Shown here: positions 3,080 through 34,471 of the stretch, piece after piece
Numbering within the stretch: the stretch's first letter is position 1
How the letters are laid out: each line of letters begins with the position of its first letter
Sequence record: NC_019423.1
Direction: 5' to 3' (one strand)
Length of the DNA stretch: 64,000 nucleotides
Source: Escherichia phage IME11
Notes under the pieces: generated by a model
What the model saw: the letters and a program-made list of their open reading frames with translations, nothing else
Databases searched by the model: none
Told to the model about the DNA's origin: nothing
Position numbers and translations under genes: made by a program

Positions 3080-3560
3080 AGGTTGGCCTTATCTTCTGGT
3101 GGTGGTCCTCGGGGCCACCATTTACTTTTGGGGTAACTCCAATGGACAGTCTACTGTTCAAAAGAAGTGGGATGCCCAAAAGGTTGAAGACCTTAAGGCA
3201 ACACAAAAATTACAGGACAAATACAATGCTCTCCAAAGAAACCATAGTTATGAAGTCGGGTTACTCACTTCCCGGTTGCAGACGGCTGAGAGTAATTACG
3301 CAAGCGAGCTTGCTCGCGTTAGCAGTGATTATGACAGCCGGATGCAACAGTCTGAAAGACGAGCATCGGTATATCAACGTCAAGCCGAAGCCGGAGCCTT
3401 TGAGTGCAGAAGTCTTGCAAGCCATGCAGCCAGACTCGACAATAGTCTTGAAGAAGGCAGACGTTTGGTTGAAGAACTCCGGGCAACTGTTAGACTCCGT
3501 GACAACCAACTAGTTGAGTTGGGTAAACAAATTCAGGCTGACCGTAAACTTTTTGAATAG
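3060..3560 (+). CDS. i-spanin (Rz-like inner-membrane spanin)
   Basis: ORF track 3039..3560; N-terminal TM helix [17 protein letters not shown] followed by a charged coiled-coil-like periplasmic domain; immediately downstream of endolysin. Confidence 0.6.
3250..3513 (+). CDS. o-spanin (Rz1-like outer-membrane lipoprotein) embedded in the +1 frame of the i-spanin gene
   Basis: Inside ORF 3142..3513; Met at 3250 begins [32 protein letters not shown], i.e. basic n-region, hydrophobic core and a lipobox-like TAGC; Pro-rich short mature part. Confidence 0.5.
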   Translation: MKSGYSLPGCRRLRVITQASLLALAVIMTAGCNSLKDEHRYINVKPKPEPLSAEVLQAMQPDSTIVLKKADVWLKNSGQLLDSVTTN

Positions 3561-15431: not shown

Positions 15432-18400
15432 TTGAACAGGAAACATGCTATGTCAACATTTGACCGTCTGGCAGGTTTCGCAGACAGCATCACTAATGCT
15501 AAGCAAGTCGATGTCTCTACTGCAACCTCTCAGAAGCAAGCTGCACAAGGGCAAAGCCCTTTCCAATTAACCCCAGAGAACGCTTACAATCTCCAAACAG
15601 GACGAGTAGGTAATCTTGGAACTGGTGCATTCGATCCAGGTTCACTTCAGGCTGATTTCACCCAAGCCTCCCCATTAGAAATCATTAATAAGTACGGTAA
15701 TGAGCAAGGTCTACAGATTCTTAATAGCCGAGCTAATGCTGCTGATGTCGTACGTCAGGACTTATCTAAACAGCGTACTAACTCAGAAGCATTTGGCGAT
15801 ACTCTTTCTGGTGTTGGTCTTGGTGTTGCTAATACCCTTGGGGGCATTGCTGCTCTTGGCACAGGTCTGGTCAATGATAATGCCGGGGCATCCATTGCTT
15901 CCGGGATGGATTGGCTGAATGAAGGTGTACATAATCTACAGTCTGATGCACTGAATGCTACTCGTAAGGTTGTTCAGAATCAGAACCAGATTTCTGCACA
16001 AGAGAACCAGAAACTCTATGAAGAAGATATCAAAAATGGGGAGAGCAGTTTGGTTGCCTCCTTGTCTCGCATTGGTCGTGACGCTTTTGATTCTGTTGCT
16101 AATACACTTGATAATGGTATGGCTGCTTCCGATGGACTGAGTGAAGGTGTTGGTTCTCTCTTTACTGGTGGTCCACTTATCCGTGGTGTGTCTGCACTAG
16201 GTAAAGTAATGGTAGGTGGGGATAAAGCTGTTAAGGGTATTACCCTAGCTGCTGAGTTAGGTTCACGTCCTGCACAGGTTGCTCTGTCTGCTGGTCGTGT
16301 TGCTGCACCTGCTGTAGCAATCGGTGGTATGGAAGCTGGTGGAGCATACCAACAGACTGCTTCTGAAATCATGAAGATGTCTCATCAAGAGTTGGCAAGT
16401 AAGTCTCCTGTATATCGACAACATATTGCTGATGGTTTATCTCCTGATGAAGCACGCCGTCAGACTGCATCTGAAACAGGTATTACTGCTGCTGGCTTAA
16501 CTGCTCCAGTTGCTGCTGCTACTGGTCCACTGGTATCTCGTTTTGAACTTAACCCACTTAAGGTAGGTTCACTGGCTGGTGCTGGTTCTAACATGCTCCG
16601 TGAAACTGTAGAAGAGGGTATTCAATCCGGCTTCGGTCAGTTCGCACAGAACACTGCAATTAAGGAAAATGTTGATGCATCCCGTGACACCCTCAAAGGG
16701 GTTGGTGAGCAAGCAGGTCTGGGTGCACTCTATGGCTTTGGTAGTGCTGGAGTTGCTCAAGCTCCTGGTGCAACTGTTAAAGCTGCTGGTGCTGCCGTTG
16801 GTCCTACTGTACGTACTACCTTGGCTGGTGCTTCTCTGGTTGGTAATGCACTAGCAAAAGTAGCTTCTCCTATCACTAACATTCTGGTTCAACGTGGAGA
16901 AGAAGTTGCTAAGCGAAATGAACAAGCATCTCCTGTATCAGATGCTACCGTTAATGCTGCTGCACAAGAAGCTACTGCTCAAGCAGAACAAGCACAAGCA
17001 ACCGTACAGGAAGCAGTAGATGCAATGGATATTTCTCCTGAAGAGAAAGCTGCTGCTACTCAGTATGCTGCTGACTTAACTCAGGCAATGAAGTTTGACC
17101 CAGTAGAACTGGAGCAAGCTAACCCGGCAATCCGTGAAGCTGTTTCTGGTTCCACTAACCGTGTTGAGGCTATCCAGAAGATGGCTGACTTGGTTAATAC
17201 TGCCGAAGACCCTAACATTCAAATGGAAGCTGCTATTCAGATGTATGACAACATCATGTCTATGGATAGCTTCATTAACCGTGACCCAGGTGCACTAGCT
17301 AATCTGGAACAAGGCTCTCCTGCTGCTAATATTGTTGACCAGTTCTCTGGTCTGATGGCTAACGTTCAGAATACACCGAAGGTACTTCGTGCATTCCGTG
17401 CTATTCATTCCATGATTCAGGAACAGGCTGAAGCAGGTAAACTGAAAGCTACTGAAGAAGCTAACCAAGCTCAGGCAAACAACATTGCTATGGCTGCTGA
17501 TATGTCTCCAGAAGTTCTGGATGCAGATTCAGTGAACATGGTTCTGAAACATGCTAGTGAAGGTAAGATTACACTGGGGAATCGTCAACGTGCTGCCCTG
17601 CAATCGGCTGCTGCTGTCTTACAGGGTGCACGTGAGTTCGACGCTAAGGCAGAAGAACTTGGCTTACGTCCTCAAGACATTGTTAGTAAACAGATTAAAA
17701 CTGACGAATCTCGTTCTAATGAAGGCCAGTACTCTGCGTTGCAACATGCGAAACGCATTCGCTCTGCGTACAACTCTGGTAACTTTGATTTGGCCTCCGC
17801 TTACCTTGACGACTTTATGAAGTTCGCCCAGCACATGCAGAATAAGGTCGGAGCGTTGAATGAGCATCTGATTTCGGGGAATGCGGATAAGAATAAGTCT
17901 GTTCACTATCAGGCTCTCTCGCCTTCCCGTGAATGGGTACGTAGTCGTACTGGCCTCGGTGTTAATCCGTATGATACCAAGTCGGTTAAGTTTGCCCAGC
18001 AAGTAGGACTGGAAGCCAAGACCGTAGCTGATATTGCTAATGCACTTGCTACGGCTTACCCGGAGCTTAATGTTTCTCATGTTAAAGTTACTCCATTAGA
18101 TTCACGTCTGGACAAGCCTGCTGCCCAGGTGGTTAAAGAGTTCCGTCAGGGCAATCTTGACGCTGCTCAATCCCAACAGACTAATGAACCAGTGAATCAG
18201 GTTGATGAATCTCCTGCACCAGTGCAAGAGGCCACTACTACTGTACAGCCTAAAACTAAACCAGTGGTAGAAAATAAATCTGCTCCTGTTAAGGATACTA
18301 GTTCAAAACCAGAAGAAGTAACTACTACTGAGTCTGAAACAGTAGATACTGCCCTCACCAATGAGGATACCACTCAGGAAGTAGCTGAAACTAAAACGGA

Positions 18401-21400
18401 AATGGAAACAGTGTTCCCTGTCTATAACAATGACAAGACACCGAGCCAGTTCCTTAAAGCATTTGCTCTGCCGGAAGAACCTAAGACTCGTACCATTGGT
18501 TCTGAATCTCCTTTGACTGATGTTAAGCAAGCACTGTCTTCTGCTGCTCGCTTTGAAGCATTCACACAAAAAGAAAATAACGCTCTCACGGGTGATGTGA
18601 TGAAACGTTATCAAGACTTACTAGGCTTTGGTGAAACTCTGAAGAGTACTCTGTCTGACCGTCTGGCTAAGTTCCTTGCTAACAAGAATGTTGGTAAACG
18701 TTTTGCAGAGGGTACTGAGGCTAACCGTTGGGTAGGTGGCAAACTGCTGAATATCGTTGAGAAAGATGGCGACACCTTTAAGTTCAACGACCAGTTGTTG
18801 GAGACTGCTGTACTTGCTGGATTGCAATGGCGATTAACTGCTACGCAGAATGCTGCCATTAAAGACATGAAAGACGTAGCTGCTATTACTGGTGTAGAAG
18901 TATCCTTGTTACCTGATGGTATTCTGGCTGACTTTGAGAATGCTCAGACCCTGGTTGAAGCTACTAACTCACTGGCCCAAAAGATTGAATCTTACTGGGG
19001 TTTGAATCGTAATCCAAATGCACCACTGGGTTATACCAAAGGTATCCCAATGGCAATGGCTACGGAGATTCTGTCTTCTCTCATTGAGATGGGTGAAGTT
19101 AAAGAGTCTATGCTGGATGTGTCTGAAATTGACCCAGCCTCCAATAAGACTGTTGGTCTGTATACTATTGAGAAGCTGGATGATAATGATGCCATTAATA
19201 ATTTTCCTACTGCTATTGAGGAAGCTGTCCTCGTAGAACCAGAAGAGAAAATGTACTTCGGTGATGATATTCCTTCCGTGGCTCAAACTCAGTTACGTAA
19301 CCCGGCTGTTAAGAATACCCCGGAACAGCAAGCTGCTCTTAAAGCAGAACAGGCTACTGAGTTCCGTGTACACATGCCTATGGTTAACTTCTATGAAGCA
19401 TTGGGTCGTGACAACATTCTGGAACTGATGGGTGCTGGTACTCTTAATCCTGAATTACTGAACGTAAACACTGCTAAATCATTGGAAGGTAAAAACCTGT
19501 CCGTGTCTATGGCATACGATTCCTTGTTTGGGGTAATCAATCAGGTTCAGGAACAGGAGAACGGACTGGATACACCTATTCACTATGGTTACAACATGAC
19601 CCGTGTAGGTCGTATGCAGATGCTTGGTAAGAATAACCCACAATCCAGTAAGCTGGTTCGTGAAGCAATTCTGCCAACCTTCTCTACTATCGACTTGAGT
19701 AATGAAAACAGCCAAACGTTCTCAGACTTCCAGTTAGGTCTGGCTCAGGCATTAGGCATCAAGGTACATAACATGTCCCGTGAAGCTATGTCTGAAAAGC
19801 TGACTAAAGCTCTGGAAGGTAATCTGAAACCTGCTGTTGATATGATGGTTGAGTTTGATAAGTCTGGTCACTTACCTACTGATGCAGTGGATATTCTGAA
19901 GACCTCTTTAGGTGGCGATAAATCATTCGTAGCTCTCATGGCTCTGATGGAATATGCCCGTTACCTGAATAGTAACGACCGTGCTAATTTTAATACCCCA
20001 CTGTACGTTGAAGCCGATGGTGTAACCAACGGACCAATTAACGCAATGGTATTAATGACCGGTGGTAAGTTCACTCCAGACTGGATTAAGAATACTGCTA
20101 AAGGTGGTTTGTTCTTCGGTAAAGCTGGTAAGACTATGAACGAGCATCGTTCACAGGATGACAGTGTTGACCTGTATGAAGCATCTACTAATGGTCTGCA
20201 ACAGGCACTTGGTGAATTACGTAGTACTTACCGTAACAACGTTCCTGTTATGAGCCAGATGAGTCATCTCCAGAAGTTAATGGACCTGTTCATCAAAGAC
20301 TTTAACCTGAATGAAGACGGTACACTGGACCTGAAACGTGGTATCGCTAAAAATCCACTAACCATTACCATCTATGGTTCTGGTGCTCGTGGTATTGCTG
20401 GCAAGATGGTTAGTGCAATTACTGATACCATCTACGAACGCTTCAGCGACGTTCTGCAAGCTCGTGCTGCTGACCCTAGCATTTCCCCGGCTATGGCAAT
20501 GTTTGGTAAGGAGGCTGCATCTGAGGCCGATGCTCAGGCTATGCTGGATACTTTCCTTACTTCTATGGAAGCACTGACTGGTAATGTTCCAGTTATGCGT
20601 AAGGGTGAGTTGTCTATTCAGCAAGCAGAAGGTGCTCTGACTGGTAAGTTAGACCCACAGAAGTTTACTGTATCTGGTAATGCCCTGAAGAACTTACAAG
20701 AGAACATGCTTCACCTGTTCGTTGAACCAATGCGTACTGGTATCCGAAATACTGTTGGTGAAGGTCTGATGCATTCTACTGAGAACTTACAGAAGGCTAC
20801 CCAGATTCAATCTCTGGTATTGCAGGATATGTTCCAACAAGCAGTACAGGCTAAACTGGCAGAAAAAGAAAAAGACCCAACATGGAAGAAAGGTGATTTC
20901 TTAACACAGAAAGAACTGAATGAAATTCAGGAATCATTATCTCCACTGGCTCCAATGATTGAGACTGGCTCACAGACTTTCTACATTGCTGGTAGTGAGA
21001 ACACTGATGTTGCTAACCAAGTACTGGCTACTAACTTAGATGACCGTATGCGTGTGCCAATGAGCATCTATGCTCCTTCACAAGCAGGTGTTGCAGGTAT
21101 TCCATTTATGACCATCGGTACTGGTGACGGCATGATGATGCAGACCCTTTCTACTATGAAAGGTGCTCCGAAGAATACCCTGAAAATCTTTGATGGTATG
21201 AACATTGGTATCAATGACATCACTGATGCAAGTCGTAAAGCTAATGAGGCTGTATATACTTCCTGGCAGGGTAACCCTATCAAGAATGTTTATGACTCCT
21301 TTGCTAAGTTCATGAAGAACGTAGACTTCAGCAAACTGTCTGATGAAACCAAACAGGCTATCGCTAAATCTGCTCTGGAATACGACCAGCGTGAGGGTGC

Positions 21401-24400
21401 TACTGATGACCTGTTACGTATTGGTGCTGAACAGATTGAACGTAATCTGCGTAACATTGCTCTGGGTGTAGATATTCGCCACAAGGTAATGAACCAGGTA
21501 CAGACTACTGTTGACCAGATGGCTGCTGTAGGTGCTCCTTATGTGAACAACGGTAAAATTTCTCTGGAAGGTCTGACTGTAGACCAACAAGTAGCTAAGC
21601 TGAACGAACTGTTTGATGTTGAATTAAACAAGCGTCGTGATGCAGTACGTGCTGCTAAAGCAGAACCAGTGAAAGAAGTACCAGCAATGGAACAGGTTGG
21701 TCGTGTACTGAAGTCTGGTGTACGTCTACTGTCTAATACTGCTATTACTAAGTTGGCTAAAGAGATGACTCCAGAACAGGCTGCTGTACTGAAAGAAGTA
21801 CAGAACTCCCTTGCTGCTAAAGACTACAAGGTTGTTTATGGCACTCCTTCTCAACTGGATGCCTACGCTATTGAGAAGAACATTACTCGCCCAGCACCGG
21901 AAGATATTGAAGCTGCTGAAGCTGGTAATGCATACGGCTGGACTAACTTTGATGATAAGACCATCTACTTAGTTACTCCTTCCTTAGAGACTCTGGTTCA
22001 TGAATTGGTACATGCTTCTACTTTTGAATCTGTACTGGCTCACTATGAAGGTACTCCTAATGAAGCAGTTCAGAATATTGAAGACCTGATGAACCAGTTC
22101 CGAACTCTGGATGTTAAGGATGAATCCCCGGCAGTACGTGAAGCATATGCTGATGCACTCAATACCATTAATGGTCACTTGTCTAATGGCTTTATTGAAC
22201 CAGCAATGGCTAAAGCTGCTGCACTGAATGAGTACATGGCATGGGGCTTAACCAACCGTGAACTGATTGGTAAGCAGAAGAAAACCACTGCACTTAAGGC
22301 CATGGTTCAGTCTGTGTATGAAGCAATCAAACGTCTGGTATTCGGACGTAAGAAAGCCCCTGCTAACGCAGATGATATGTTCTCTGGCTTACTGTTTAAC
22401 TCTTCTGTAGTTATGCGTGGGCAGGCTCCTACTGCTGCTGTAGCCAAGGACACTACTCTGTTCCATAACAAAGCATATGGTGACAATACTCGTCTGGAAG
22501 AGCTAGGGAAGACCTTCGATAAACTGATTACTAACTACATTGGTTCAGAACCAGTACAACAAGTAATTCGTAAAGGTAAGTTCTCTGATGCAGTAGTGAA
22601 TGCAACTAAAGTAACCCGTGATGTTCAGGCTCATGGCTTCACTATGAATATGCAGGAACAGCGTCTCTTTACTAACATTGTTGCTGCACTGGCTACCGAA
22701 GCTGCTATTAGTCCAGCTGCTCTGGCTCGTGCACAAGAATACTATGCACACGTAACCAAGAACCTGACTGTTGAAGCGTTCATGACTGACCCGGATAGTA
22801 CTAACCCTGCTGACCGTTACTACGCACAGCAGAAGTTCGATACCATCATGGGTGCTAACAACATTGAGTTTGATGCACAAGGTCGTTCTTCCTTACTGCC
22901 TACCTTTGTGGCACTGGCAATGGTAAGTGAAGATGTACGTAATGTGCTGGCTGACATTCCTGTTATGAAAGCAGATAAGCAATCCGGTAATACCGTTGAT
23001 GCAATGCTGACTAATATCGGTACTGCTGCAATGGCTAGTCTGAATGCTCGTGTAGCAGGTGATACTAAAGCTACCAATGTACAAGAAGGTATGGATGCAC
23101 TGGCTCAGACCATCATGCAGACCAGTCTTAATGCACAGTCATTCTATGATTCCGTCGCCACTCCTAGTGGTAATGCTATAGACCGTGCTAACCAGTATCT
23201 GGTGGACTCTATTGATGTACTGTCTACCCGTGCTTTAGAAGGTGCTCGTGAAGTTGCAGCTAATACCAAGAACCCGTTGGTTAAAGGTGCTGCTCATGCT
23301 GCACAACTGGTAGCTGCTATTGCTACAGAGAAGAATGGTGCAATCGTAGCTGAAGGTGTTATGGCTGCAATGAACCAGGGTAAAGCATGGCAACCTTTCC
23401 ACGACCTGGTTAATGACTTAACCGGACGTACTAAGAGCAATGCTTCTGTATATGATTTGATTAAAGCAGTTCGTGCACAGGTACAGGCTGACCGTCAACA
23501 GTTCCGTGAACACTTACCTACCACTATCGCATCCAAGTTCAGCCGTAAGCTGACTAATGATGAGTGGAAAGCAATGCATACCGGTATGGGTAAAACTGAC
23601 TTGGCTGTCCTGCGTGACACTATGTCTTTGGCTGAAATTCGTGACCTGCTGACTGACCAGAAGATTGTTGACCGTGAGGTGAATAAGCTGGAAGCAGATT
23701 TACAGAAACAAGCAGGACGTAACTGGCCTTTGATTAGCCGTAAATCTAAGCAACTGGCTCAGTACATGATTAACGGTACAGTCGGTAGTAACCTGCTGCG
23801 TAATGCTACTGCAATTTCTCGTATGCTGGGTGAACGACAGGCTGCACGTTCTACCGTAGATGTGGCTCAACTGGATAAGCTGATTACCTTGTATGCACTG
23901 GAAGCAATGAATAAGACTGACCGTGAGATGTTATCTTCACTGGCTCAGACAGAAATTGAAGGTATGGACTTTGCTACTTCTTATCTGGTTGGGCAGCGTA
24001 AAGATGAAATGGCTAAAGCCAAGTCTGATATGCGTGCAACCTTGAACCAGTACAAAGGACATATCCCCAGTGAAACTAAACAGGGTGTTAACCTGATTGT
24101 TGCTGAAGATAGTCAGTTTGCTGATTTGATTGAGAAGTCCTATGTACGTCTGGGTACTTATCAAGGTAGTTCTGCTAACCGTGGTCCAGCACGTAGCTAC
24201 TACTTTGCACCAGTACAGGCACAGGCTCCATTCTCACAGGGTATATTACAGAACGTTCGCAATACTGCTGGTGGTGTGGACCTTGGTACAGGCTTTACGA
24301 TGGGTTCCATGGTAGCAGGTCGTATCACTGACAAGCCTTCCGTAGACCGTATCACTAAAGCTCTGGCTCGTGGTGAACGTGGTAATGAACCACTGCTGCC

Positions 24401-25802
24401 TGTATATGATGACAAAGGGAATGTGGTTGCTTATGAGCAATCCATTGACCCTAACATGCTGAAGCACATTGAGGGTGAGAACCATCTTGCTCGTGCAATC
24501 GGTGTATGGCGTGGTCGTCAGGTAGAAGAGGCTAAGGCTCAGCGTTTCAACGATATGCTTATTGAGAACCTACATAGCATGTATGAGAACGACATTAAGA
24601 TGTCTGCCTCTAATAAGTCCCAGTACGTTAACCTTCTTGGTTCTAAACTGGACCCAGTAACTGCCGATGCTCTTAAGCTGATGAATAGTGAAACTCGTCA
24701 GAAAGCAGAAAGCCTGTTTGGCCCGGGTGAGTTGTGGGTACGTCGTGATATGCTCAACGATGCTCTTGGTTATCGTGCAGCTTCTGTAGGGGATGCCTGG
24801 TCTGGTAATTCTCGTTGGTCCCCAGAAACACTGGATACCTTCAAGAAAGCTATGCTAGGTGTATTTGGCAATCGTGCATATAAGTACACAATGGGTGGTG
24901 AGAACCTGGTTCAGAACTTAGTTAAAGAAGCTAAGACCCTGATTGTAGTTAAGTCAGTAGTCGTACCTGCAGTTAACTTCCTAGCTAACCTTTACCAGAT
25001 GGTTGCTCGTGGTGTACCGGTTAAGAACATTGCTAAGAGCATTCCACAGAAGACTGCTGAGATTAACCAGTACCTGAAATCTCGTCTACGTCAGGTAGAT
25101 GCAGAAGCAGAATTACGTGCAGCTACTAACCCGAACCAGATTCGTAAACTTAAGGCTGAGATTCAGTCCATCTCTGATAGCCATAAGCGTTTAAGTATCT
25201 GGCCTCTGTTAGAAGCTGGTGAGTTCTCTTCAATTGCAGATGCTGGTATCGGACGTGATGACATCCTTATTACTGAGGGTAAACTTCACGAATACATGGA
25301 TAAGCTGGCTGATAAGCTACCTAAGTCTGTACGTAACGCAGGTCGTTATGCACTTATCACTAAGGATACTGCTCTCTTCCAGGGTATCCAGAAGACGGTT
25401 GAGTACTCTGACTTTATCGCTAAAGCAATCATCTATGATGAACTGACTCAGCGTAAAGGTAAGACTCGTGAGGAAGCACTGGGACGTGTAACGGAAGAGT
25501 TCATTAACTATGATCGTTTACCTGGTCGCTTCCGTGGGTATATGGAAAGCATTGGCTTAATGTGGTTCTACAACTTTAAGATTCGTTCTGCAAAAGTTGC
25601 AGTGTCCATGATTCGTAATAACCCAGTACATGCTGCTATGGCTATGTTGGCTCCAACCCCTACCATGTTTGGTAATGTTGGTTTACCTATTCAGGACAAC
25701 ATCTTCAGCATTGCTGCACAGGGCAATCTCGGTTACTCCTTCGGTTTCGGTCAGGGCTTACGTGCCCATAACCTGAACCCTTGGCTCAATCTTACTAACT
25801 AA
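15432..25802 (+). CDS. virion-encapsidated RNA polymerase (N4 gp50-like vRNAP)
   Basis: Single 3456-aa ORF (10.4 kb); central region has T7-like single-subunit RNAP motifs (motif A-like LYVEADGVTNG, motif B-like KNPLTITIYGSGARG); size matches the roughly 3500-aa N4 vRNAP. Confidence 0.85.
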   Translation: MNRKHAMSTFDRLAGFADSITNAKQVDVSTATSQKQAAQGQSPFQLTPENAYNLQTGRVGNLGTGAFDPGSLQADFTQASPLEIINKYGNEQGLQILNSRANAADVVRQDLSKQRTNSEAFGDTLSGVGLGVANTLGGIAALGTGLVNDNAGASIASGMDWLNEGVHNLQSDALNATRKVVQNQNQISAQENQKLYEEDIKNGESSLVASLSRIGRDAFDSVANTLDNGMAASDGLSEGVGSLFTGGPLIRGVSALGKVMVGGDKAVKGITLAAELGSRPAQVALSAGRVAAPAVAIGGMEAGGAYQQTASEIMKMSHQELASKSPVYRQHIADGLSPDEARRQTASETGITAAGLTAPVAAATGPLVSRFELNPLKVGSLAGAGSNMLRETVEEGIQSGFGQFAQNTAIKENVDASRDTLKGVGEQAGLGALYGFGSAGVAQAPGATVKAAGAAVGPTVRTTLAGASLVGNALAKVASPITNILVQRGEEVAKRNEQASPVSDATVNAAAQEATAQAEQAQATVQEAVDAMDISPEEKAAATQYAADLTQAMKFDPVELEQANPAIREAVSGSTNRVEAIQKMADLVNTAEDPNIQMEAAIQMYDNIMSMDSFINRDPGALANLEQGSPAANIVDQFSGLMANVQNTPKVLRAFRAIHSMIQEQAEAGKLKATEEANQAQANNIAMAADMSPEVLDADSVNMVLKHASEGKITLGNRQRAALQSAAAVLQGAREFDAKAEELGLRPQDIVSKQIKTDESRSNEGQYSALQHAKRIRSAYNSGNFDLASAYLDDFMKFAQHMQNKVGALNEHLISGNADKNKSVHYQALSPSREWVRSRTGLGVNPYDTKSVKFAQQVGLEAKTVADIANALATAYPELNVSHVKVTPLDSRLDKPAAQVVKEFRQGNLDAAQSQQTNEPVNQVDESPAPVQEATTTVQPKTKPVVENKSAPVKDTSSKPEEVTTTESETVDTALTNEDTTQEVAETKTEMETVFPVYNNDKTPSQFLKAFALPEEPKTRTIGSESPLTDVKQALSSAARFEAFTQKENNALTGDVMKRYQDLLGFGETLKSTLSDRLAKFLANKNVGKRFAEGTEANRWVGGKLLNIVEKDGDTFKFNDQLLETAVLAGLQWRLTATQNAAIKDMKDVAAITGVEVSLLPDGILADFENAQTLVEATNSLAQKIESYWGLNRNPNAPLGYTKGIPMAMATEILSSLIEMGEVKESMLDVSEIDPASNKTVGLYTIEKLDDNDAINNFPTAIEEAVLVEPEEKMYFGDDIPSVAQTQLRNPAVKNTPEQQAALKAEQATEFRVHMPMVNFYEALGRDNILELMGAGTLNPELLNVNTAKSLEGKNLSVSMAYDSLFGVINQVQEQENGLDTPIHYGYNMTRVGRMQMLGKNNPQSSKLVREAILPTFSTIDLSNENSQTFSDFQLGLAQALGIKVHNMSREAMSEKLTKALEGNLKPAVDMMVEFDKSGHLPTDAVDILKTSLGGDKSFVALMALMEYARYLNSNDRANFNTPLYVEADGVTNGPINAMVLMTGGKFTPDWIKNTAKGGLFFGKAGKTMNEHRSQDDSVDLYEASTNGLQQALGELRSTYRNNVPVMSQMSHLQKLMDLFIKDFNLNEDGTLDLKRGIAKNPLTITIYGSGARGIAGKMVSAITDTIYERFSDVLQARAADPSISPAMAMFGKEAASEADAQAMLDTFLTSMEALTGNVPVMRKGELSIQQAEGALTGKLDPQKFTVSGNALKNLQENMLHLFVEPMRTGIRNTVGEGLMHSTENLQKATQIQSLVLQDMFQQAVQAKLAEKEKDPTWKKGDFLTQKELNEIQESLSPLAPMIETGSQTFYIAGSENTDVANQVLATNLDDRMRVPMSIYAPSQAGVAGIPFMTIGTGDGMMMQTLSTMKGAPKNTLKIFDGMNIGINDITDASRKANEAVYTSWQGNPIKNVYDSFAKFMKNVDFSKLSDETKQAIAKSALEYDQREGATDDLLRIGAEQIERNLRNIALGVDIRHKVMNQVQTTVDQMAAVGAPYVNNGKISLEGLTVDQQVAKLNELFDVELNKRRDAVRAAKAEPVKEVPAMEQVGRVLKSGVRLLSNTAITKLAKEMTPEQAAVLKEVQNSLAAKDYKVVYGTPSQLDAYAIEKNITRPAPEDIEAAEAGNAYGWTNFDDKTIYLVTPSLETLVHELVHASTFESVLAHYEGTPNEAVQNIEDLMNQFRTLDVKDESPAVREAYADALNTINGHLSNGFIEPAMAKAAALNEYMAWGLTNRELIGKQKKTTALKAMVQSVYEAIKRLVFGRKKAPANADDMFSGLLFNSSVVMRGQAPTAAVAKDTTLFHNKAYGDNTRLEELGKTFDKLITNYIGSEPVQQVIRKGKFSDAVVNATKVTRDVQAHGFTMNMQEQRLFTNIVAALATEAAISPAALARAQEYYAHVTKNLTVEAFMTDPDSTNPADRYYAQQKFDTIMGANNIEFDAQGRSSLLPTFVALAMVSEDVRNVLADIPVMKADKQSGNTVDAMLTNIGTAAMASLNARVAGDTKATNVQEGMDALAQTIMQTSLNAQSFYDSVATPSGNAIDRANQYLVDSIDVLSTRALEGAREVAANTKNPLVKGAAHAAQLVAAIATEKNGAIVAEGVMAAMNQGKAWQPFHDLVNDLTGRTKSNASVYDLIKAVRAQVQADRQQFREHLPTTIASKFSRKLTNDEWKAMHTGMGKTDLAVLRDTMSLAEIRDLLTDQKIVDREVNKLEADLQKQAGRNWPLISRKSKQLAQYMINGTVGSNLLRNATAISRMLGERQAARSTVDVAQLDKLITLYALEAMNKTDREMLSSLAQTEIEGMDFATSYLVGQRKDEMAKAKSDMRATLNQYKGHIPSETKQGVNLIVAEDSQFADLIEKSYVRLGTYQGSSANRGPARSYYFAPVQAQAPFSQGILQNVRNTAGGVDLGTGFTMGSMVAGRITDKPSVDRITKALARGERGNEPLLPVYDDKGNVVAYEQSIDPNMLKHIEGENHLARAIGVWRGRQVEEAKAQRFNDMLIENLHSMYENDIKMSASNKSQYVNLLGSKLDPVTADALKLMNSETRQKAESLFGPGELWVRRDMLNDALGYRAASVGDAWSGNSRWSPETLDTFKKAMLGVFGNRAYKYTMGGENLVQNLVKEAKTLIVVKSVVVPAVNFLANLYQMVARGVPVKNIAKSIPQKTAEINQYLKSRLRQVDAEAELRAATNPNQIRKLKAEIQSISDSHKRLSIWPLLEAGEFSSIADAGIGRDDILITEGKLHEYMDKLADKLPKSVRNAGRYALITKDTALFQGIQKTVEYSDFIAKAIIYDELTQRKGKTREEALGRVTEEFINYDRLPGRFRGYMESIGLMWFYNFKIRSAKVAVSMIRNNPVHAAMAMLAPTPTMFGNVGLPIQDNIFSIAAQGNLGYSFGFGQGLRAHNLNPWLNLTN

Positions 25803-26274: not shown

Positions 26275-26775
26275 TTACAGAATTACCCAGTCTTCTGCTA
26301 ATACATCTGATTGGGATGGAACCCAAGGCATAAACTGGTCATCGACAGTTTTGATTCCCAACCACGGGCGTGGCTTCAGTTCATCAGCAAATCCTGGACG
26401 CTCTAAGCTACTACTGTTCCAATCTTGAGCGTCAACGTACTCAACATACATTCCTTTTCCGTTCCAACCTTTGCGGGCTAGCTTGAATCCTGATTTGAGA
26501 AGCTCTACTGCATGACCAAAGGTACAACCTTTTTCTACGTCATGGTATGCAGCTTCGAATGCAGTTTTAGGTGACCAGCTAATATAGCCACGGAACTGAG
26601 GATGGTTGGACTTCGAGTCTGGATACTCAACTAAGTAACCTACTTCTAGCGGGTCTTCATCTGCTGGTACATCCCAGCCACGAAGTTTGCAGTATGTTTC
26701 TTTGTTCATCCGGAAACCATTTACACACTTGGTTCCGATATAGTTGGTGAAATGGACTTTAATTTCTTCTGACAT
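26275..26775 (-). CDS. two-domain protein; C-terminal region resembles DUF2829 (Tad2-like) family
   Basis: ORF track 26275..26913; Met at 26775 is preceded by GAGGT; C-terminal ARKGWNGKGMYV ... PWVPSQSDVLAEDWVIL resembles my memory of the DUF2829 signature, which I cannot verify here. Confidence 0.35.
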   Translation of the reverse strand: MSEEIKVHFTNYIGTKCVNGFRMNKETYCKLRGWDVPADEDPLEVGYLVEYPDSKSNHPQFRGYISWSPKTAFEAAYHDVEKGCTFGHAVELLKSGFKLARKGWNGKGMYVEYVDAQDWNSSSLERPGFADELKPRPWLGIKTVDDQFMPWVPSQSDVLAEDWVIL

Positions 26776-26784
26776 AACTACCTC

Positions 26785-26811
26785 AAATGATAAAGCCCTC
26801 ACTAGGAGGGC
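26785..26811 (-). terminator. rho-independent terminator
   Basis: GCCCTC-CTAGT-GAGGGC hairpin followed on the minus strand by TTTATCATTT. Confidence 0.45.
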
Positions 26812-26919
26812 TTGTTTTGTTTTGGCTTCTAAAGCCTTACCACATGTCGGGTAGTTCTGTACCTTTCGGTGAAAACTACCATATACCTGTTTGCTAAATG
26901 GTGCAACCACCACTAACTT

Positions 26920-27168
26920 TTATTTAGAATATTGCCCTTTCGTATACTCAATGAAGTATCCGAACTTAGCTTCATACTCTGTAGGGGGATGTTTGCTTAC
27001 ATGGTGTTTAGCCATACTAAGTAATTCCTTTTCCAACTTATTTACATTGATTGTATCTGCTGTTTCCCCAATAGGGAACTTATGGTGGTAAGCTGGTTCA
27101 GAAGTAATTTTTCCGCTTTTAGCTAAAACTTTAACGGAAGCAAACCCAACTTTAGGGTTTATATCCAT
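26920..27168 (-). CDS. hypothetical protein (82 aa)
   Basis: ORF, stop adjacent to the upstream gene. Confidence 0.5.
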   Translation of the reverse strand: MDINPKVGFASVKVLAKSGKITSEPAYHHKFPIGETADTINVNKLEKELLSMAKHHVSKHPPTEYEAKFGYFIEYTKGQYSK

Positions 27169-27617
27169 TAGATTTTACAACCCCCACCTTCACACTCATT
27201 ATTTTCCAGGAAGCCCTTCAGCATTTCTTGGCTCTGAGCTTGCTCATGCAGATTCTGCTTAAGCAGGTAACCTTCCAGTAACCAGACCTTATCGATTGCA
27301 TTTTCATAGGCAATCTTACGCCCAATTTCTTCGTTGAAGTTTCCCGGGGATGCACAGGCAGACTCACCAGTAACAGTGAAGCCATTCTCCAGAACCAGTA
27401 CACAGAAAGTCAGCAGAGATAGTGACTGTACTTCCTGGTTCTTAATGGTTGCTAAGTCTGGTAGTACAGATGCTGCACCATCCAGGCCAGTAAAGAAGTA
27501 AGTACCAAGTACTTTACTCTTGATGTGGTCAGGGGTAATGCGTGGAGCTTTATCAGCACCAGCTTCTTTAATCTGTTGTTCGAGTTCCATAGATTCCTCA
27601 GTGTTTATGTTATTCAA
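27168..27617 (-). CDS. hypothetical protein (149 aa)
   Basis: ORF directly downstream of the tRNA-like cluster and its terminator. Confidence 0.5.
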   Translation of the reverse strand: MNNINTEESMELEQQIKEAGADKAPRITPDHIKSKVLGTYFFTGLDGAASVLPDLATIKNQEVQSLSLLTFCVLVLENGFTVTGESACASPGNFNEEIGRKIAYENAIDKVWLLEGYLLKQNLHEQAQSQEMLKGFLENNECEGGGCKI

Positions 27618-27618
27618 A

Positions 27619-27655
27619 TAAAAAAGTCCCCCAGAGGGGCGACTCTAGGGGACTT
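27619..27655 (-). terminator. rho-independent terminator downstream of the tRNA-like cluster
   Basis: Minus strand reads GTCCCC...CCCCTCTGGGGGAC followed by TTTTTTATTT. Confidence 0.55.
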
Positions 27656-27898
27656 AGTACTATTTACCCATAGCTGGGAGGCTTTTGGTTCTTACCACGA
27701 AGACAGTCCACGCTGACTAGGCTTGGGATTGATAGTCCCGTTCCTGTGGTAATTACTCAGGCTAGGATTTAAGGAGTTCCTATTCTCCAGCGAAATTCCC
27801 GTCGAGGGGAATAACAATACAATAGCAGTCACTGGACTGTCTTACCAGTGTTGTCTTTAGAGTGCTATGCAATCAGGACTATGTTACTGCTGAATGGG

Positions 27899-27972
27899 TG
27901 TCCACTACTGGATTTGAACCAGTGACTTTCCGATTATTAGTCGGTTGCTTTCCCCGTCTAAGCTAAGTGGAC
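27899..27972 (-). tRNA. tRNA gene, apparent anticodon AAT (Ile-reading) by hand folding
   Basis: Minus strand GTCCACT-TA-GCTT-AGACGGGGA-AAGC-A-ACCGA-CTAATAA-TCGGA-AAGTC-ACTGG-TTCAAAT-CCAGT-AGTGGAC-A: 7-bp acceptor stem, D arm, canonical 7-nt anticodon loop with U33, T arm with TTCAAAT loop. Confidence 0.6.
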
Positions 27973-27978
27973 TTATTA

Positions 27979-28054
27979 TGGTTACCCAGGCAGGATTCGA
28001 ACCTGCGTCCTAGTTGGTTTACTAGTGGGGCTTTACCACTAAGCCTACTGGGTA
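27979..28054 (-). tRNA. tRNA-like gene with encoded CCA and non-canonical anticodon arm
   Basis: Minus strand TACCCAG...GCAGG-TTCGAAT-CCTGC-CTGGGTA-A-CCA: perfect acceptor, D and T arms, but the anticodon region (CCACTAGTAAACCAACTAGGAC) pairs only as CTAG/CTAG with a 6- or 8-nt loop. Confidence 0.5.
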
Positions 28055-28292
28055 TTAATAGGGGAGTCATGCCAGGCTTTAACTGGCTCCTTCTTCGCAA
28101 TCCTTACATACCCCTACATAATTATTGCGTTAAGCTTTTTTGTTTAAGTTTAAGTGAAGGCGTTCTTGCTGACTCATTGTTGGATGCTCCCGGGTATCTG
28201 AACTATTGAACGGGTGTTTCCAGCCATGCAGGCGTTCAAGATGTTTGGGAGCATAATTCTTTCAATTCAGAGTAGCACTGTTGCAGTCGTCA

Positions 28293-28370
28293 CTGCCCAT
28301 AGGTAAGGATTCGAACCTTACAATACCGTTAGTTTGCAACGTCGCTGTACCATTTCGCGTTCTATGCAAT
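28293..28370 (-). tRNA. tRNA-like element (possibly degenerate)
   Basis: T arm TAAGG-TTCGAAT-CCTTA on the minus strand; acceptor pairs only 5 of 7 and anticodon loop lacks U33 in my fold. Confidence 0.3.
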
Positions 28371-28383
28371 GCTACTTTGAATT

Positions 28384-28450
28384 GGTTCCGGCGTCTGGAC
28401 TCGAACCAGAACACTCACGTTTGTGCACAACGCTAGTACCTACACCGGAA
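28384..28450 (-). tRNA. compact tRNA-like element (about 64 nt) with encoded CCA
   Basis: Minus strand TCCGGTG ... TCTGG-TTCGAGT-CCAGA-CGCCGGA-A-CCA: 7-bp acceptor (one G-U) and T arm, but only 31 nt between them, too short for normal D and anticodon arms. Confidence 0.3.
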
Positions 28451-29460
28451 TTAATTGCCAGGGATTCCACCTGGCTCTATCTGTTTTTATAGTCACTCAG
28501 ATATCGTCTGGACTTGTTGTGGTGACCGGTACTGATCTCCGGCATAAGGCGCTTATTCGGCGGCGTCGAGCTTGCTTATTCGCTTGAGCCATCCTCGTGA
28601 GTCAGCCACGTCCCACTGCGCATCAGCCTGCACATTCACCACAACGGAAAGAGCACTGATGCGCTCACTTGGGACTCCTTAGCCATAACCCACGGGCTTC
28701 TGGTACACCAATGCTCTTACCTGTTGTGTGCCCATTATTAATCACACCGGGCCAGTGCGCCGAATTTGTTTACAAGGAATCGGAAGACCTTGCTGACTTA
28801 TAGGCTATTACGCCGCCATCAGAACAACATCATCGTTTGCATTTATGTTATTGGTTCGTTTCTAAAAAACCACATAATCGCTTACGAAAACTATCAAAGA
28901 GTACACTTACTCGACTGGTTAAACTACATCTGTCCAGCTCCGCAACAAATATACTCATTGATAGGATGTCATAATAGGGGAGGGAGGACGAATCCCTCTT
29001 TACCCTATGGTTTAGTTTACATGTAAGACCTAACATCTCTATGCTGGATGAATAGCGTAATGAACTATCCGACATCATTGGTTAATGTTGTGCTCAACAT
29101 GAGCGTTAGTTGATAAGGGATCTGAAGCCTTATCCTAAAGATACTAACCTTTGGGATATAGCCTAAGATTCAGAAATGGCCCCTATAGGGAGAGGCCATT
29201 GATTAACCCGAATGTTGCTTTACATTTTCTGTGATAACCCATTCTTAAAATAGTCTACCTGACGGATGGGAGTTAACCCTAGCGTCAGTGCCATACGGCA
29301 AAGATTAAGTTAAGAAAGGTTACGATAGGAGTTCCTATCTCAAAGGATTCTAACAGAACCCTTCACGATATTAACTATTCATTGTGAAATTCTTTGTTTC
29401 CTTCAGCAGGTTCTACACCCAAGAAAAAGCTAACTTTTCCACTTAGTTTAGATTGAACCA
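28451..29460 (-). ncRNA. candidate structured non-coding RNA region adjacent to the tRNA-like cluster (strand not established)
   Basis: About 1 kb with no credible ORF; 28500-28760 is locally GC-rich (about 52-62 percent versus about 38 percent at 29101-29160, hand counts) with a long inverted repeat GTCCCACTGCGCATCAG / CTGATGCGCTCACTTGGGAC; further hairpins at 29120-29350. Confidence 0.25.
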
Positions 29461-29675
29461 ATGGACTTCGGAGAGTATTAAAGCCCACTGGTTCGGTTGT
29501 TGTTGTTACTCTGGCGGCTTGTCACCACCGTGTTTACCACTGCATTTCCACAGGATAATGACAGTGATGATAAAAGCTATGTATGGAGCCGACACGTCTA
29601 TAATCCTGACCAGTAGTAGCATCAGGACTATAAACACTACCACACCTAGCAGCAGCTTCTGAGCCACCTACCAGA

Positions 29676-32317: not shown

Positions 32318-34471
32318 TTATTTGCCAGCGAAGCGTTTAGCCACGGTGACCATTACGGTTGCATTCAATTCATCATCCGGCAACGGATTAGCCAGTTTCT
32401 TATTGAATGAGTAGACGGCTTGCTGTACTTGAGCAAAGTCCCAACCACTGTCTACTAATGCCAGTGCGTATTTAATCATTTGATTATTACGATTACCGGA
32501 GGCAATACGACCAGCGAACCAACGCTCCAGATTATCCAACGACTGTACTTCCTTCATCTGGTTCTGGAACTGCTCGTTCTTACTGGTACGAGGAATAAAG
32601 TCACGCACGTCCAACAGATTCGCATCAAGGTTGTAATGATAGGAACCAGTTTCACAGGACATCCACTTCTTGGCTCGTTGGTTAGCAGACTCATCCGTTT
32701 CGAATGGTAGCCAAGCCATAACGTTATTCATGAACTCTTTGTATTCCTCAGTGTCGAGGTGTAACTCATAGTTCATTGGAATAATTAGACGGAAGCGGTT
32801 CTCTTCATTAGAATGACGCTTAGTGGTATAGGTCATGAACTTATATTCCTTCATTAGTTCATGGCACGTATGCAGTGGTACTCCACCATCACAATCAATA
32901 ACAATCATGTTAAATCCTGGAATAACGTTCTCTTCAGAACGATGCCCATTCTTCATGTGATGGTTTACCCAGTGCATACCGGGAGCTTGGGTTAATACAT
33001 GTAGCTGGTCAAACGGTACACGTTCACCAACATAGTCATAAGCAAAGCTATCACTATATGCCACCAGCATCTCATTGGTGTCAGTCTCTTTCAGAGTCTC
33101 ACCACGGAAGAACTCAATACCTTCATTGAAGGTCTTCTTAATAATGATGTGCTGTTTGTAACCCCATGCTGTAGCAAGAGTCATCATCTCATTACGAGCT
33201 GCATTACCACTCTTATAGAAAGGTAAAGACTCCAGTAAGTCAGCATGAGTTACTTCTTTACCTACGGAAGCAATGTACTTAGCCAGCTTCACATAAGCCT
33301 TCTCACGATTGAGGATTGTCTGGAATGCTGCCCCGGATTCCTCTACGAGCAGGATTGCTTGTTTAAGGTGAGTCATTTCAATGAATGAACTCTGGTCAAC
33401 AAACGCCAGTGCACCTGCCAGCTTAAGAGCCTTGAAGTAACGGTGGGATATTTCAGCCTTACGAATTTCTTCGTGGTCAGCCATAGCCTCTGCTTGTTTC
33501 TCACAATCAATTTTGTAAGTAATCAGAGCAATACCCACTGCATCTTCCACAATCATCTTAAAGCCAAACAGGTTTGGGTCAGCCAAACTATGGAAGTGGT
33601 TAGCCCACTTACCAAGAGACTGTACGTTATCCTGCTTAATCAGGTTGCGGTAGATTTCTTCCGGGGTCAGCGTTGCATGTGCTCGTTTGTCTAAGTGCCC
33701 AATGGCAAACAGGCAGCGACGTGCATACCCTGTATCCAGGAAATCATAGAACTGGTCTTCAGTCTGACCACCGTCCAGCAACTTACTTGGAGTACCAAAT
33801 AACAGTAGGTTAGCGGGGGTCTTACCATCCAGTTCTTCGCCACGAACACTTTCAGCAGTGTTCTTGGTTAGTTTCTGCTTAACTTTCCCCTGGTCATACA
33901 ACTCAAGGAACAGGTTAAGAACTTCAACGTTAGCAATGAGGTTGGAACCAATCTCATCAATCTGTAGGTTAATAGCGCCACAACCAGCCATAAGCAGTTT
34001 GTGACGAAGCTGTTTTACAGCAGGTGCTGTACCGGAGTCGAATGTGAATGGGAATGCCCCAGCACGTTTATATTCTGCTTCAACTTTATCAAACTCTTCC
34101 TGCTGGTCAGTGCCCTGACGTGCAGAACGTTCGTTAGCAATCTTCCATAGACGGTCATTTGCAATGACGGGCATGGTGTCTTCCATAAAACGTTTACGGA
34201 AGCCAGTCATGAACCCGTCTTCAATGATATTTACTGAGTGACCTTTACCGAAACCAGATGTAGCCAACGCCATAGCGTAGATGTTTACCGGCAGGTCACC
34301 ACGGTCTTTAGTTACGATGGTTGCACCCATGCAGGATGCCATTTTAGCCAAGAAGTAGGCCACTTCGACACGGAAGAATCCCCGGTCATTATTCTGGGTT
34401 TTATTGCAGAGCACATCTACGATTTCTTCAATCGCTGGATGGTGCACTACTCCGGTAAGGTCAATACTCAT
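32318..34471 (-). CDS. DNA primase-like replication protein
   Basis: ORF track 32318..34528 (736 aa); Met at 34471 forms an ATGA overlap with the upstream nuclease stop; size and position match the primase of N4-like phages; acidic VIDCDGG motif. Confidence 0.45.
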   Translation of the reverse strand: MSIDLTGVVHHPAIEEIVDVLCNKTQNNDRGFFRVEVAYFLAKMASCMGATIVTKDRGDLPVNIYAMALATSGFGKGHSVNIIEDGFMTGFRKRFMEDTMPVIANDRLWKIANERSARQGTDQQEEFDKVEAEYKRAGAFPFTFDSGTAPAVKQLRHKLLMAGCGAINLQIDEIGSNLIANVEVLNLFLELYDQGKVKQKLTKNTAESVRGEELDGKTPANLLLFGTPSKLLDGGQTEDQFYDFLDTGYARRCLFAIGHLDKRAHATLTPEEIYRNLIKQDNVQSLGKWANHFHSLADPNLFGFKMIVEDAVGIALITYKIDCEKQAEAMADHEEIRKAEISHRYFKALKLAGALAFVDQSSFIEMTHLKQAILLVEESGAAFQTILNREKAYVKLAKYIASVGKEVTHADLLESLPFYKSGNAARNEMMTLATAWGYKQHIIIKKTFNEGIEFFRGETLKETDTNEMLVAYSDSFAYDYVGERVPFDQLHVLTQAPGMHWVNHHMKNGHRSEENVIPGFNMIVIDCDGGVPLHTCHELMKEYKFMTYTTKRHSNEENRFRLIIPMNYELHLDTEEYKEFMNNVMAWLPFETDESANQRAKKWMSCETGSYHYNLDANLLDVRDFIPRTSKNEQFQNQMKEVQSLDNLERWFAGRIASGNRNNQMIKYALALVDSGWDFAQVQQAVYSFNKKLANPLPDDELNATVMVTVAKRFAGK

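Follow-up and report, generated by a model that had tools for sequence, protein, structure and literature searches.

Our analysis concerns an island of tRNA-like and other structured RNA genes in Escherichia phage IME11 (NC_019423.1), in a stretch of 64,000 nt that is referred to here as the window. Four tRNA-like elements (elements 1 to 4, the last three also named E2 to E4) had been noticed there in a preliminary description made from the sequence alone. All four lie on the minus strand within an approximately 2-kb stretch without a substantial open reading frame (ORF), at 27618-29675, which is bordered by minus-strand genes of the N4 gp47/gp49 neighbourhood. The region 27600-29600 shares 94-96% identity with Gamaleyavirus genomes, and an ORF of 3456 amino acids at 15432-25802 is the virion RNA polymerase; judged by these sequences, the source is a Gamaleyavirus, i.e. 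an N4-like coliphage of the Schitoviridae. The counterpart of the island in N4 is the gap between gp47 and gp48. Since this gap holds canonical genes for tRNA-Asn(GUU), tRNA-Ser(UGA), tRNA-Thr(UGU) and tRNA-Pro(UGG) (50-77 bits) plus a copy of E4, it represents the tRNA island of the N4-like phage family. The N4 genes are located at NC_008720 ~32451-33127, together with the E4 copy, and are missing from the RefSeq feature table. In the window the island is a tRNA and non-coding RNA island, oriented leftwards on the minus strand and closed by a strong intrinsic terminator (27624-27655, minus strand; 13-bp stem and U tract), for which phage PhAPEC7 has a terminator annotated at the equivalent place.

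The preliminary observation was correct and non-random, and part of it is already found in public annotation. Its context, an N4-like tRNA island with additional tRNA-like modules and a module resembling transfer-messenger RNA (tmRNA), had been missed. The main points of the locus are a recurrent tRNA-Ile with A at anticodon position 34 (A34), tRNA mimics that appear to be under selection and, above all, the tmRNA-like module, which is unannotated.

A tRNA-Ile with anticodon AAU

Element 1 (27897-27972, minus strand) was called as tRNA-Ile(aat) by ARAGORN at default settings and scored 65.6 bits with the Rfam tRNA model RF00005 (gathering score, GA, 29; E = 5e-12 for the whole window), and its minimum free energy (MFE) fold is the cloverleaf. 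The hand fold had placed AAU at positions 34-36 of a loop CUAAUAA, and both programs agree with it: the loop C32 U33 A34 A35 U36 A37 A38 has 7 nt, with U33 and a purine at position 37, and A34, A35 and U36 correspond to 27938, 27937 and 27936. Among 14 homologs 94.7% of the cells in the cloverleaf were paired and 10 of 21 pairs had changed on both sides, a result that none of 500 shuffles matched. Element 1 is a real, conserved tRNA. Each of the 12 Gamaleyavirus copies compared has the same loop and, with it, the anticodon AAU.

Identical copies (100%) of elements 1 and 2 are annotated in Escherichia phage UE-M6, and relatives of the two have been listed as tRNA-Ile-AAT and tRNA-Undet (PMC11927229). 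These public records are a bare tRNAscan listing that analyses neither A34 nor the defective arm nor the further elements 3, 4 and E5, and our literature search for a tRNA-Ile(AAU) in phages yielded nothing beyond it.

The best match to element 1 in Escherichia coli is a prophage tRNA-Ile(CAU) with 77% identity, which is a member of an Ile-Arg-Arg cluster located after a methyltransferase gene. By sequence, element 1 appears to derive from this phage/prophage tRNA-Ile2 lineage (CAU, lysidine-dependent, of the ileX/ileZ type and often annotated as tRNA-Met) by a change of C34 to A34, the lineage member in question being ileZ-like. We scanned IMG/VR for the anticodon-arm context of element 1, allowing any base at position 34, and obtained 85 phage tRNAs with C (66), A (18) or T (1) at this position; element 1 thus shares its anticodon arm, except for position 34, with 66 CAU phage tRNAs. 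A34 was found on two tRNA bodies, namely the Gamaleyavirus tRNA and a tRNA of 47-kb siphoviruses, the latter with A34 in three loci and C34 in 14 sibling loci. Because the two backbones are different, the C-to-A change must have arisen independently at least twice. The A34 form was absent from an exact-pattern scan of one genome per species for 185,579 bacterial species.

Unlike tRNA-Ile2, element 1 carries A34 and would be no substrate for TilS, and its predicted codon shifts from AUA to AUU. AUU is the dominant isoleucine codon of the phage (59-69%, with AUA at ~8%). A role as a supplement for AUA was considered and rejected, since AUA makes up just ~8% of the isoleucine codons. The positions that we take to determine identity for isoleucyl-tRNA synthetase (IleRS), i.e. 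A73, C4-G69, U12-A23, C29-G41, A37 and A38, are all kept according to the alignment of copies, and because of this element 1 would presumably still be charged by IleRS. It would then be expected to read AUU by Watson-Crick pairing and would no longer need host TilS or lysidine. Deamination of A34 to inosine, should it occur, would extend its reading to all three isoleucine codons.

Apart from tRNA-Arg(ACG), bacteria have, to our knowledge, hardly any A34 tRNAs. Element 1 shares an encoded A34 with this bacterial tRNA, in which TadA converts ACG to ICG, and with eukaryotic tRNA-Ile(IAU), and would decode like the latter if deaminated. The loop of tRNA-Arg2, CUACGAA, differs from CUAAUAA at positions 35-36 only. 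E. coli TadA is reported to need C35-G36 (loop U33-A34-C35-G36), whereas positions 35-36 of element 1 are A-U, so that element 1 lacks the loop reported for TadA substrates. A deaminase motif (H/CxE...PCxxC) was not found in the large ORFs of the window.

Conserved tRNA mimics

Element 2 (27979-28054, minus strand) is a tRNA-shaped RNA with canonical acceptor (UACCCAG/CUGGGUA), D and T arms and an encoded A-CCA end, and with a displaced hairpin in place of the anticodon arm. It scored 42.8 bits with the Rfam tRNA model (GA 29), with an 18-nt anticodon region left unaligned, and ARAGORN reported it as 'tRNA-???' with a 2-nt 'anticodon'. The central arm, CUAGU(28025-28021)-AAACCA-ACUAG(28014-28010), has 5 bp and a 6-nt loop. 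The hand fold, in which the acceptor, D and T arms were perfect, CCA was encoded and CTAG/CTAG paired around 6 or 8 nt, had described the same structure, the version with the 8-nt loop being the 5-bp stem with its closing U-A pair opened. The hairpin occupies positions 30-45, i.e. it is shifted by ~3 nt from the canonical anticodon stem 27-31/39-43, its loop contains no U33, and 3 nt alone remain between it and the T stem. The MFE fold is this cloverleaf (z = -2.8), and the acceptor stem shows a compensatory change in phage CU10EC. Full-length copies were detected in 22 of 50,697 phage records, and no canonical tRNA relative of E2 was found in these 50,697 records nor in the loci compared.

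Element 3 is embedded in a larger module (28262-28383, minus strand; fold z = -4.05), whose tRNA-like core at 28366-28298 caps a long helix AGUAGCAUUGCA/UGCAACAGUGCUACU. The core has D-like, central and T arms and a 5-bp acceptor-like stem (CAUAG/CUAUG) that forms part of the longer helix. Its T arm GUAAGG-UUCGAAU-CCUUAC covaries (GUAAGG/CCUUAC versus GUGAGG/CCUCAC), and so does the acceptor-like stem, whose counterpart in Salmonella phage TR2 reads CACAG/CUGUG. The TR2 copy of the E3 module forms the tip of a hairpin directly 5' of the first pseudoknot region (PK1) and tag of a tmRNA-like module, and the two form a compact unit of ~380 nt with a terminator at its end.

Element 4 (28383-28449, minus strand) is a CCA-ended tRNA-like RNA of ~66 nt without a D arm, consisting of a 7-bp acceptor (UCCGGUG/CGCCGGA) with A73 and an encoded CCA, a long central hairpin and a T arm UCUGG-UUCGAGU-CCAGA. 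Pair 3-70 is C3-G70 and not G3:U70, the sole wobble pair is U6-G67, and no Rfam tmRNA model matched. We found 13 homologs, including that of N4 with 92% identity, in which 100% of the cells were paired. Across genera, N4 and Klebsiella N4-like phages included, the conservation of E4 amounts to 92-100%, with flanks that have diverged beyond detection by blastn; apart from E4 and a two-hairpin element upstream (28450-28514, minus strand; fold z = -2.5), which includes CCAGG-UGGAAUC-CCUGG, nothing in the segment can still be aligned to N4, the two together matching at 93.5%. The two-hairpin element also occurs on its own in Klebsiella phage KP13-27, with a covarying stem. The central loop of the window's E4 variant is GUGCACA, with 7 nt, U at the '33' position and a pyrimidine at position '37'. 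In nine of the 13 homologs including N4 the loop has 6 nt and can close to a UGCA tetraloop. Given a 6-nt loop in most copies, it is not an anticodon loop and the designation 'tRNA-Cys' is not tenable.

Elements 3 and 4 were not matched by RF00005 even at E <= 10. ARAGORN reported them at the 80% threshold (-ps80) alone and with poor stems, and its mitochondrial mode, which allows for D-armless tRNAs, called neither. The MFE folds of elements 2-4 reproduced the proposed shapes (z from -2.0 to -4.8), including the good T arms, the defective acceptor of E3 and the missing D arm of E4 that had been drawn by hand; the software gave no canonical anticodon arms in place of those folds. An additional structured hairpin RNA of 80 nt, E5 (28177-28258, minus strand; fold z = -4.8), was absent from the preliminary description. 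It is 80% conserved in the unrelated Klebsiella myovirus VIK251 (L146 301-381), where it forms the spacer exactly between tRNA-Gly and tRNA-Glu, and its closing stem covaries between the two phages (GCUCCC/GGGAGC versus GCCCCU/AGGGGC). The idea that E5 is a decayed tRNA-Gly was rejected, as the Klebsiella match is the spacer beside tRNA-Gly and not the tRNA.

Elements 2 to 5 are conserved structures that fail as decoders and share their island with a tmRNA-like RNA. Together with two modules described below, a minihelix and a GUUGUGG/CCACAAC domain, they are tRNA mimics and not decoders: the mimics retain the features by which tRNA-processing enzymes know their substrates, namely an acceptor stem that stacks on a T arm and, in E2 and E4, an encoded CCA, and have lost a usable anticodon loop.

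A tmRNA-like module

The region 28728-28964 (minus strand) was found to be tmRNA-like in most respects other than the tRNA-like domain (TLD), as far as its sequence and pairings can tell. It scored 33.1 bits with the Rfam model tmRNA_permuted, below the GA of 47. Specifically, it comprises a hairpin (28964-28891), a PK1-like region, a tag ORF (28840-28808), helix H5 (28793-28772) and the pairings of two further pseudoknots, PK2 (28783-28780 with 28763-28760) and PK3 (28759-28754 with 28748-28743 and 28752-28749 with 28733-28730), all on the minus strand. The tag ORF, GCA AAC GAU GAU GUU GUU CUG AUG GCG GCG UAA, encodes ANDDVVLMAA* and follows a resume-type context AUAAAU|GCA with a 10-codon frame and a hairpin at the stop codon. 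The tag of E. coli tmRNA is ANDENYALAA, which ANDDVVLMAA resembles. With tmRNA (ssrA) the module shares the upstream structured region, the resume context, the 10-codon tag, the stop-codon hairpin and the downstream pseudoknots; it differs from tmRNAs, including the permuted forms, in that no TLD with G3:U70 and CCA adjoins or encloses it.

The core segment (~28700-28895, with shorter portions in distant groups) matched 766 phage records from Gamaleyavirus, Felixounavirus and other Ounavirinae, Ackermannviridae, 47-kb siphoviruses and Klebsiella and Erwinia phages, and no RNA annotation was present under those matches that we inspected. The tag module also occurs in phage-plasmids and in a lambdoid prophage, between the Q antiterminator and holin genes, and was found in just two of 185,579 bacterial species genomes. 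Tags recovered by blastn, and hence free of pattern bias, were ANDDVVLMAA, ANEEAYLMVA, ANNETYLMVA, ANEEMYLAVA, ANDNVFLAVA, ANDNTFLAVA and ANDAQFLAVA, all ending hydrophobically in AA or VA before the stop. Differences between groups are often synonymous, and the many synonymous changes argue that the short tag ORF is under coding selection. A pattern scan yielded 136 loci with 17 tag variants, a diversity that is conditional as the pattern fixes part of the tag. H5, PK2 and the first stem of PK3 (PK3-S1) were 93.4% paired as compared to 36-46% in slid controls, with 11 of 16 pairs compensatory, and a second stem (PK3-S2) of 3-8 bp was present in 18 of 18 representatives. The PK1-region pairings upstream of the resume codon are plausible but are in different registers between groups, and look like a plain hairpin in the Felix O1-type phages.

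ARAGORN at default settings detected no tmRNA in 23 loci and missed the window's module too, and the Rfam tmRNA scores of the module in other phages (26-31 bits) are below the gathering score for every tmRNA family. A T-arm/acceptor scan of 21 representative loci gave no TLD (G3:U70 acceptor, T arm, CCA) enclosing the tag. Two specific arrangements were tried and rejected. For a permuted two-piece tmRNA, the 'tRNA domains' proposed by ARAGORN at 70-85% thresholds contained no T arm and Rfam remained below GA, and for a one-piece tmRNA, scanning the 21 loci for a T arm, a 7-nt acceptor strand and CCA with a distant 5' partner gave no consistent candidate. In the window, 7 nt of the 3' strand of E4 do match the PK2 region, but other lineages have not conserved this match. 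Homology to host ssrA was searched for by blastn of 28380-28960 against 5,426 E. coli genomes, and no ssrA was among the matches listed, which were prophage or phage-plasmid copies and short weak ones such as mdtP. Our literature search for a tmRNA-like RNA in these phage groups found none.

In the Erwinia, Felix O1-type, siphovirus and lambdoid-prophage loci inspected, the tag module was part of a tRNA cluster or next to one. A CAU or AAU tRNA follows the tag by 386-599 nt in the siphoviruses and by 871 nt in the window, in the same order. In the Felix O1-type Salmonella phage FO1a (L020 1695-1773; also in locus L041) a poor tRNA of 31.7 bits lies ~185 nt after the tag start; it has the alanine-identity features G3:U70, A73 and CCA, an anticodon-like loop CUUCUAA and no proper D arm, and is the sole G3:U70 candidate that we saw near any tag module. 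A near-consensus sigma-70 promoter was seen directly upstream of the conserved start of the tag module (GAUAGUUUUCG) in a Salmonella siphovirus (L018 1464-1492) and an Erwinia phage (L021 ~1415-1445). An RNA transcribed from such a promoter would begin at the module and have no 5' tRNA-like strand.

Further modules and surroundings of the island

Additional tRNA-like modules surround the tag. A tRNA-like 3' domain closed by GUUGUGG(UGA)/(UCA)CCACAAC (28516-28645, minus strand) is conserved in siphovirus and Klebsiella phage copies, and in locus L062 the unit closed by the GUUGUGG/CCACAAC helix contains real D and T arms. A repeated hairpin ACAAC-AGGUAAGAGCA...UGCUCUUUCC-GUUGU (28641-28727, minus strand) is found in RNA islands of other phages in one to three copies, which stand ahead of the tag module, behind it or on both sides. 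Several other loci have the tag module flanked by these AGGUAAGAGCA...UGCUCUUUCC hairpins and the GUUGUGG/CCACAAC domain, and the window has both. With the hairpin standing one or more times before or after the tag module (L028, L036 and L062), alternative pairings and circularly permuted arrangements are possible. The window's 3' domain (~28515-28657) has an unannotated 88% match in the chromosome of E. coli CE10 (L025 ~3001-3148), between a prophage repressor-like gene and yfdP, near the prophage genes yfdP-yfdR; other E. coli records contain matches like this one or of similar kinds, many of them weak. Just upstream of the tag module, an acceptor/T-arm 'minihelix' without CCA, AUAGGG-UAAA-GAGGGA-UUCGUCC-UCCCUC-CCCUAU (28974-29008, minus strand), was read from sequence and fold. 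Of 16 Gamaleyavirus loci, 15 contain a homologous region; ECBP1 has different stems. Elements 2-4 thereby belong to a family of tRNA-like modules with which a mobile RNA cassette of phages is adorned.

A sigma-70-like promoter candidate, TTAATA-16-TGnTAGAAT (29347-29374, minus strand), was identified upstream of the island by its match to the consensus. In UE-M6 (2700-2779 of its locus L001) an extra tRNA-like gene lies downstream of the tag module, annotated as tRNA-Cys and published as Cys-ACA; this would be a second A34 anticodon in sister phages, and the segment is replaced by a different sequence in the window. Directly downstream of the island, ORFs at 26275-26913 and 27168-27617 (minus strand) encode Tad2-like (Thoeris anti-defence) and N4 gp49/Sf6 gp66 domains, and the phage 24-32N homolog of one downstream ORF carries an anti-CRISPR protein annotation. 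With anti-defence-like genes downstream, the island borders an accessory, anti-defence region. No SmpB domain was found in six ORFs around the island, which belong to the N4 gp49 family, are Tad2-like or crAss001_48-like, or are of unknown type.

Possible functions of the island

The explanation that we favour, with a probability of roughly 60% for the whole, is that element 1 is a working tRNA-Ile and that elements 2-4 are non-decoding mimics which serve processing and stability of the island RNAs. The mimics may act as punctuation for RNase P, 3'-end processing and the CCA enzyme and as stabilising modules, by which a long transcript of the island would be divided into small and stable RNAs, the tmRNA-like RNA among them. 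The idea of punctuation was drawn from three observations, namely that the E5 homolog sits between two tRNAs of a myovirus array, that the E3 homolog of TR2 tips a hairpin directly 5' of the tmRNA-like module, and that the tag module lies in or beside tRNA clusters. Known tRNA mimics, such as mitochondrial tRNA punctuation, mascRNA-type RNAs and YrlA domains, likewise use an acceptor/T-arm module without decoding, between RNAs of one transcript. Unlike these, the island mimics are known here from sequence, and no Rfam match was significant (YrlA 17 bits, E = 3.4). The preliminary description had offered pseudo-tRNAs, processing signals and unusual decoders as options. An unusual decoder fits element 1 alone; decay to pseudo-tRNAs fits E2-E4 poorly in view of their compensatory pairing, and processing signals or structural mimics would seem to be the most compatible reading for these three.

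Several points weigh against this explanation. Element 1 encodes no CCA, its 3' end being A-CCC, and has an A27-A43 mismatch. AUU is already read by host tRNA-Ile(GAU), so that the gain from an AAU tRNA is unproven, and unmodified A34 is generally avoided in bacteria and could misread. Turning to the mimics, the central hairpin of E2 is invariant in the three distinct sequences available, by which its stem is neither supported nor refuted, and the covariation in E4 consists of two sequence variants of the central hairpin that differ by two compensatory pairs, possibly from a single event. The punctuation role is suggested by anatomy and position alone. The promoter assignment upstream of the island is weak, since the count of promoter-like matches is not above shuffled expectation and N4-like phages use their own RNA polymerases. 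Finally, the island is mosaic among close relatives: among 16 Gamaleyavirus loci element 1 is present in 11, E2 in five, E3 in four and E4 in 11, and because of this patchy presence each module is accessory and dispensable.

The main alternative, though unlikely in our view, is that the mimics are decoys that titrate host factors such as tRNA-targeting defence nucleases or SmpB. The RNA of mycobacteriophage DS6A that consists of a TLD only probably titrates SmpB, and inhibition of tmRNA by such molecules has been reported (PMC4131195; see also PMC11915505); E4 would be an analogue of this mini-tmRNA, with which it shares the missing D stem, a long helix at the anticodon position, the T arm and the A73-CCA end. 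The genes immediately downstream, which include a Tad2-like anti-defence domain protein and a member of the N4 gp49 family, and the presence of a tmRNA-like module in the same island would also suit a decoy. However, E4 differs from the DS6A RNA in having C3-G70 instead of G3:U70, it matched no tmRNA model, and N4 has E4 without a detectable tag module.

A bolder and likewise improbable idea is a phage-borne takeover of ribosome rescue, in which the tag module, which is phage-specific and widespread in phages of enterobacteria, and separate CCA-ended mimics (E4, E3) would make up a multi-piece or rearranged tmRNA of a hitherto undescribed kind, or in which host tmRNA-SmpB would be blocked by the mimics and tagging redirected by the module, with the A34 tRNA-Ile travelling in the same mobile cassette. 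A further proposal, that E3 and/or E4 are the TLD of the neighbouring tmRNA-like RNA and that a split or rearranged tmRNA tags with ANDDVVLMAA, appears rather doubtful. The tag module does resemble a tmRNA in most respects other than the TLD, E4 is CCA-ended and TLD-shaped, and TR2 has the E3 module joined directly to the 5' side of PK1 in the ~380-nt unit that ends in a terminator. Against this, G3:U70 is absent from E2, E3, E4 and the minihelix, E3 is joined via its acceptor end and has no CCA, no acceptor pairing enclosing the tag was found in the scan of 21 representative loci, the Rfam permuted-tmRNA model does not align to the TR2 E3, and most phage groups with the tag module have neither E3 nor E4.

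That E2-E4 are decaying pseudo-tRNAs, i.e. functionless relics of a canonical array like that of N4, is also a reading to which we give little credence. It would account for the canonical tRNAs in the equivalent gap of N4, for the patchiness of the modules among close relatives, for the rejection of E3 and E4 by the Rfam tRNA model and for the lack of a canonical relative of E2 among the 50,697 phage records. It is contradicted by pairing that is kept through compensatory substitutions in E2, E3, E4 and E5, by the conservation of E4 across genera with diverged flanks and of E5 in an unrelated myovirus, and by the encoded CCA kept in E2 and E4; the compensatory changes and cross-genus conservation make pure decay the weakest reading of E2-E5. 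It is highly improbable that E2 and E4 are unusual decoders, E2 by frameshift or quadruplet reading through its 6- or 8-nt loop and E4 as a D-armless tRNA-Cys(GCA), since, for all their aminoacylatable-looking ends (7-bp acceptor, discriminator A, CCA) and the 7-nt GUGCACA loop with U at '33' in the window's E4, the E2 hairpin is displaced by ~3 nt, with no U33 and 3 nt from the T stem, and E4 has the 6-nt loop in nine of 13 homologs, a pyrimidine at '37' and no call in the mitochondrial D-armless mode of ARAGORN.

Implications

A fixed A34 in a phage tRNA-Ile that recurs on a second backbone offers a natural test of how A34, unmodified or deaminated, is tolerated on E. coli ribosomes, and bears on whether host TadA acts beyond its known target and on phage escape from TilS dependence. 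The conserved mimics indicate that 'tRNA-Undet' and 'pseudo' calls in phage genomes can hide RNAs that are under selection. An exhaustive survey in 2014 recorded no phage ssrA outside mycobacteriophages and Bacillus phage G (PMC4131195). Translation of the tag module, if it occurs, would make it the first tagging RNA of the tmRNA type in enterobacterial phages and the first without a recognisable tRNA-like domain, and it would bear on how templates for trans-translation are delivered to ribosomes.

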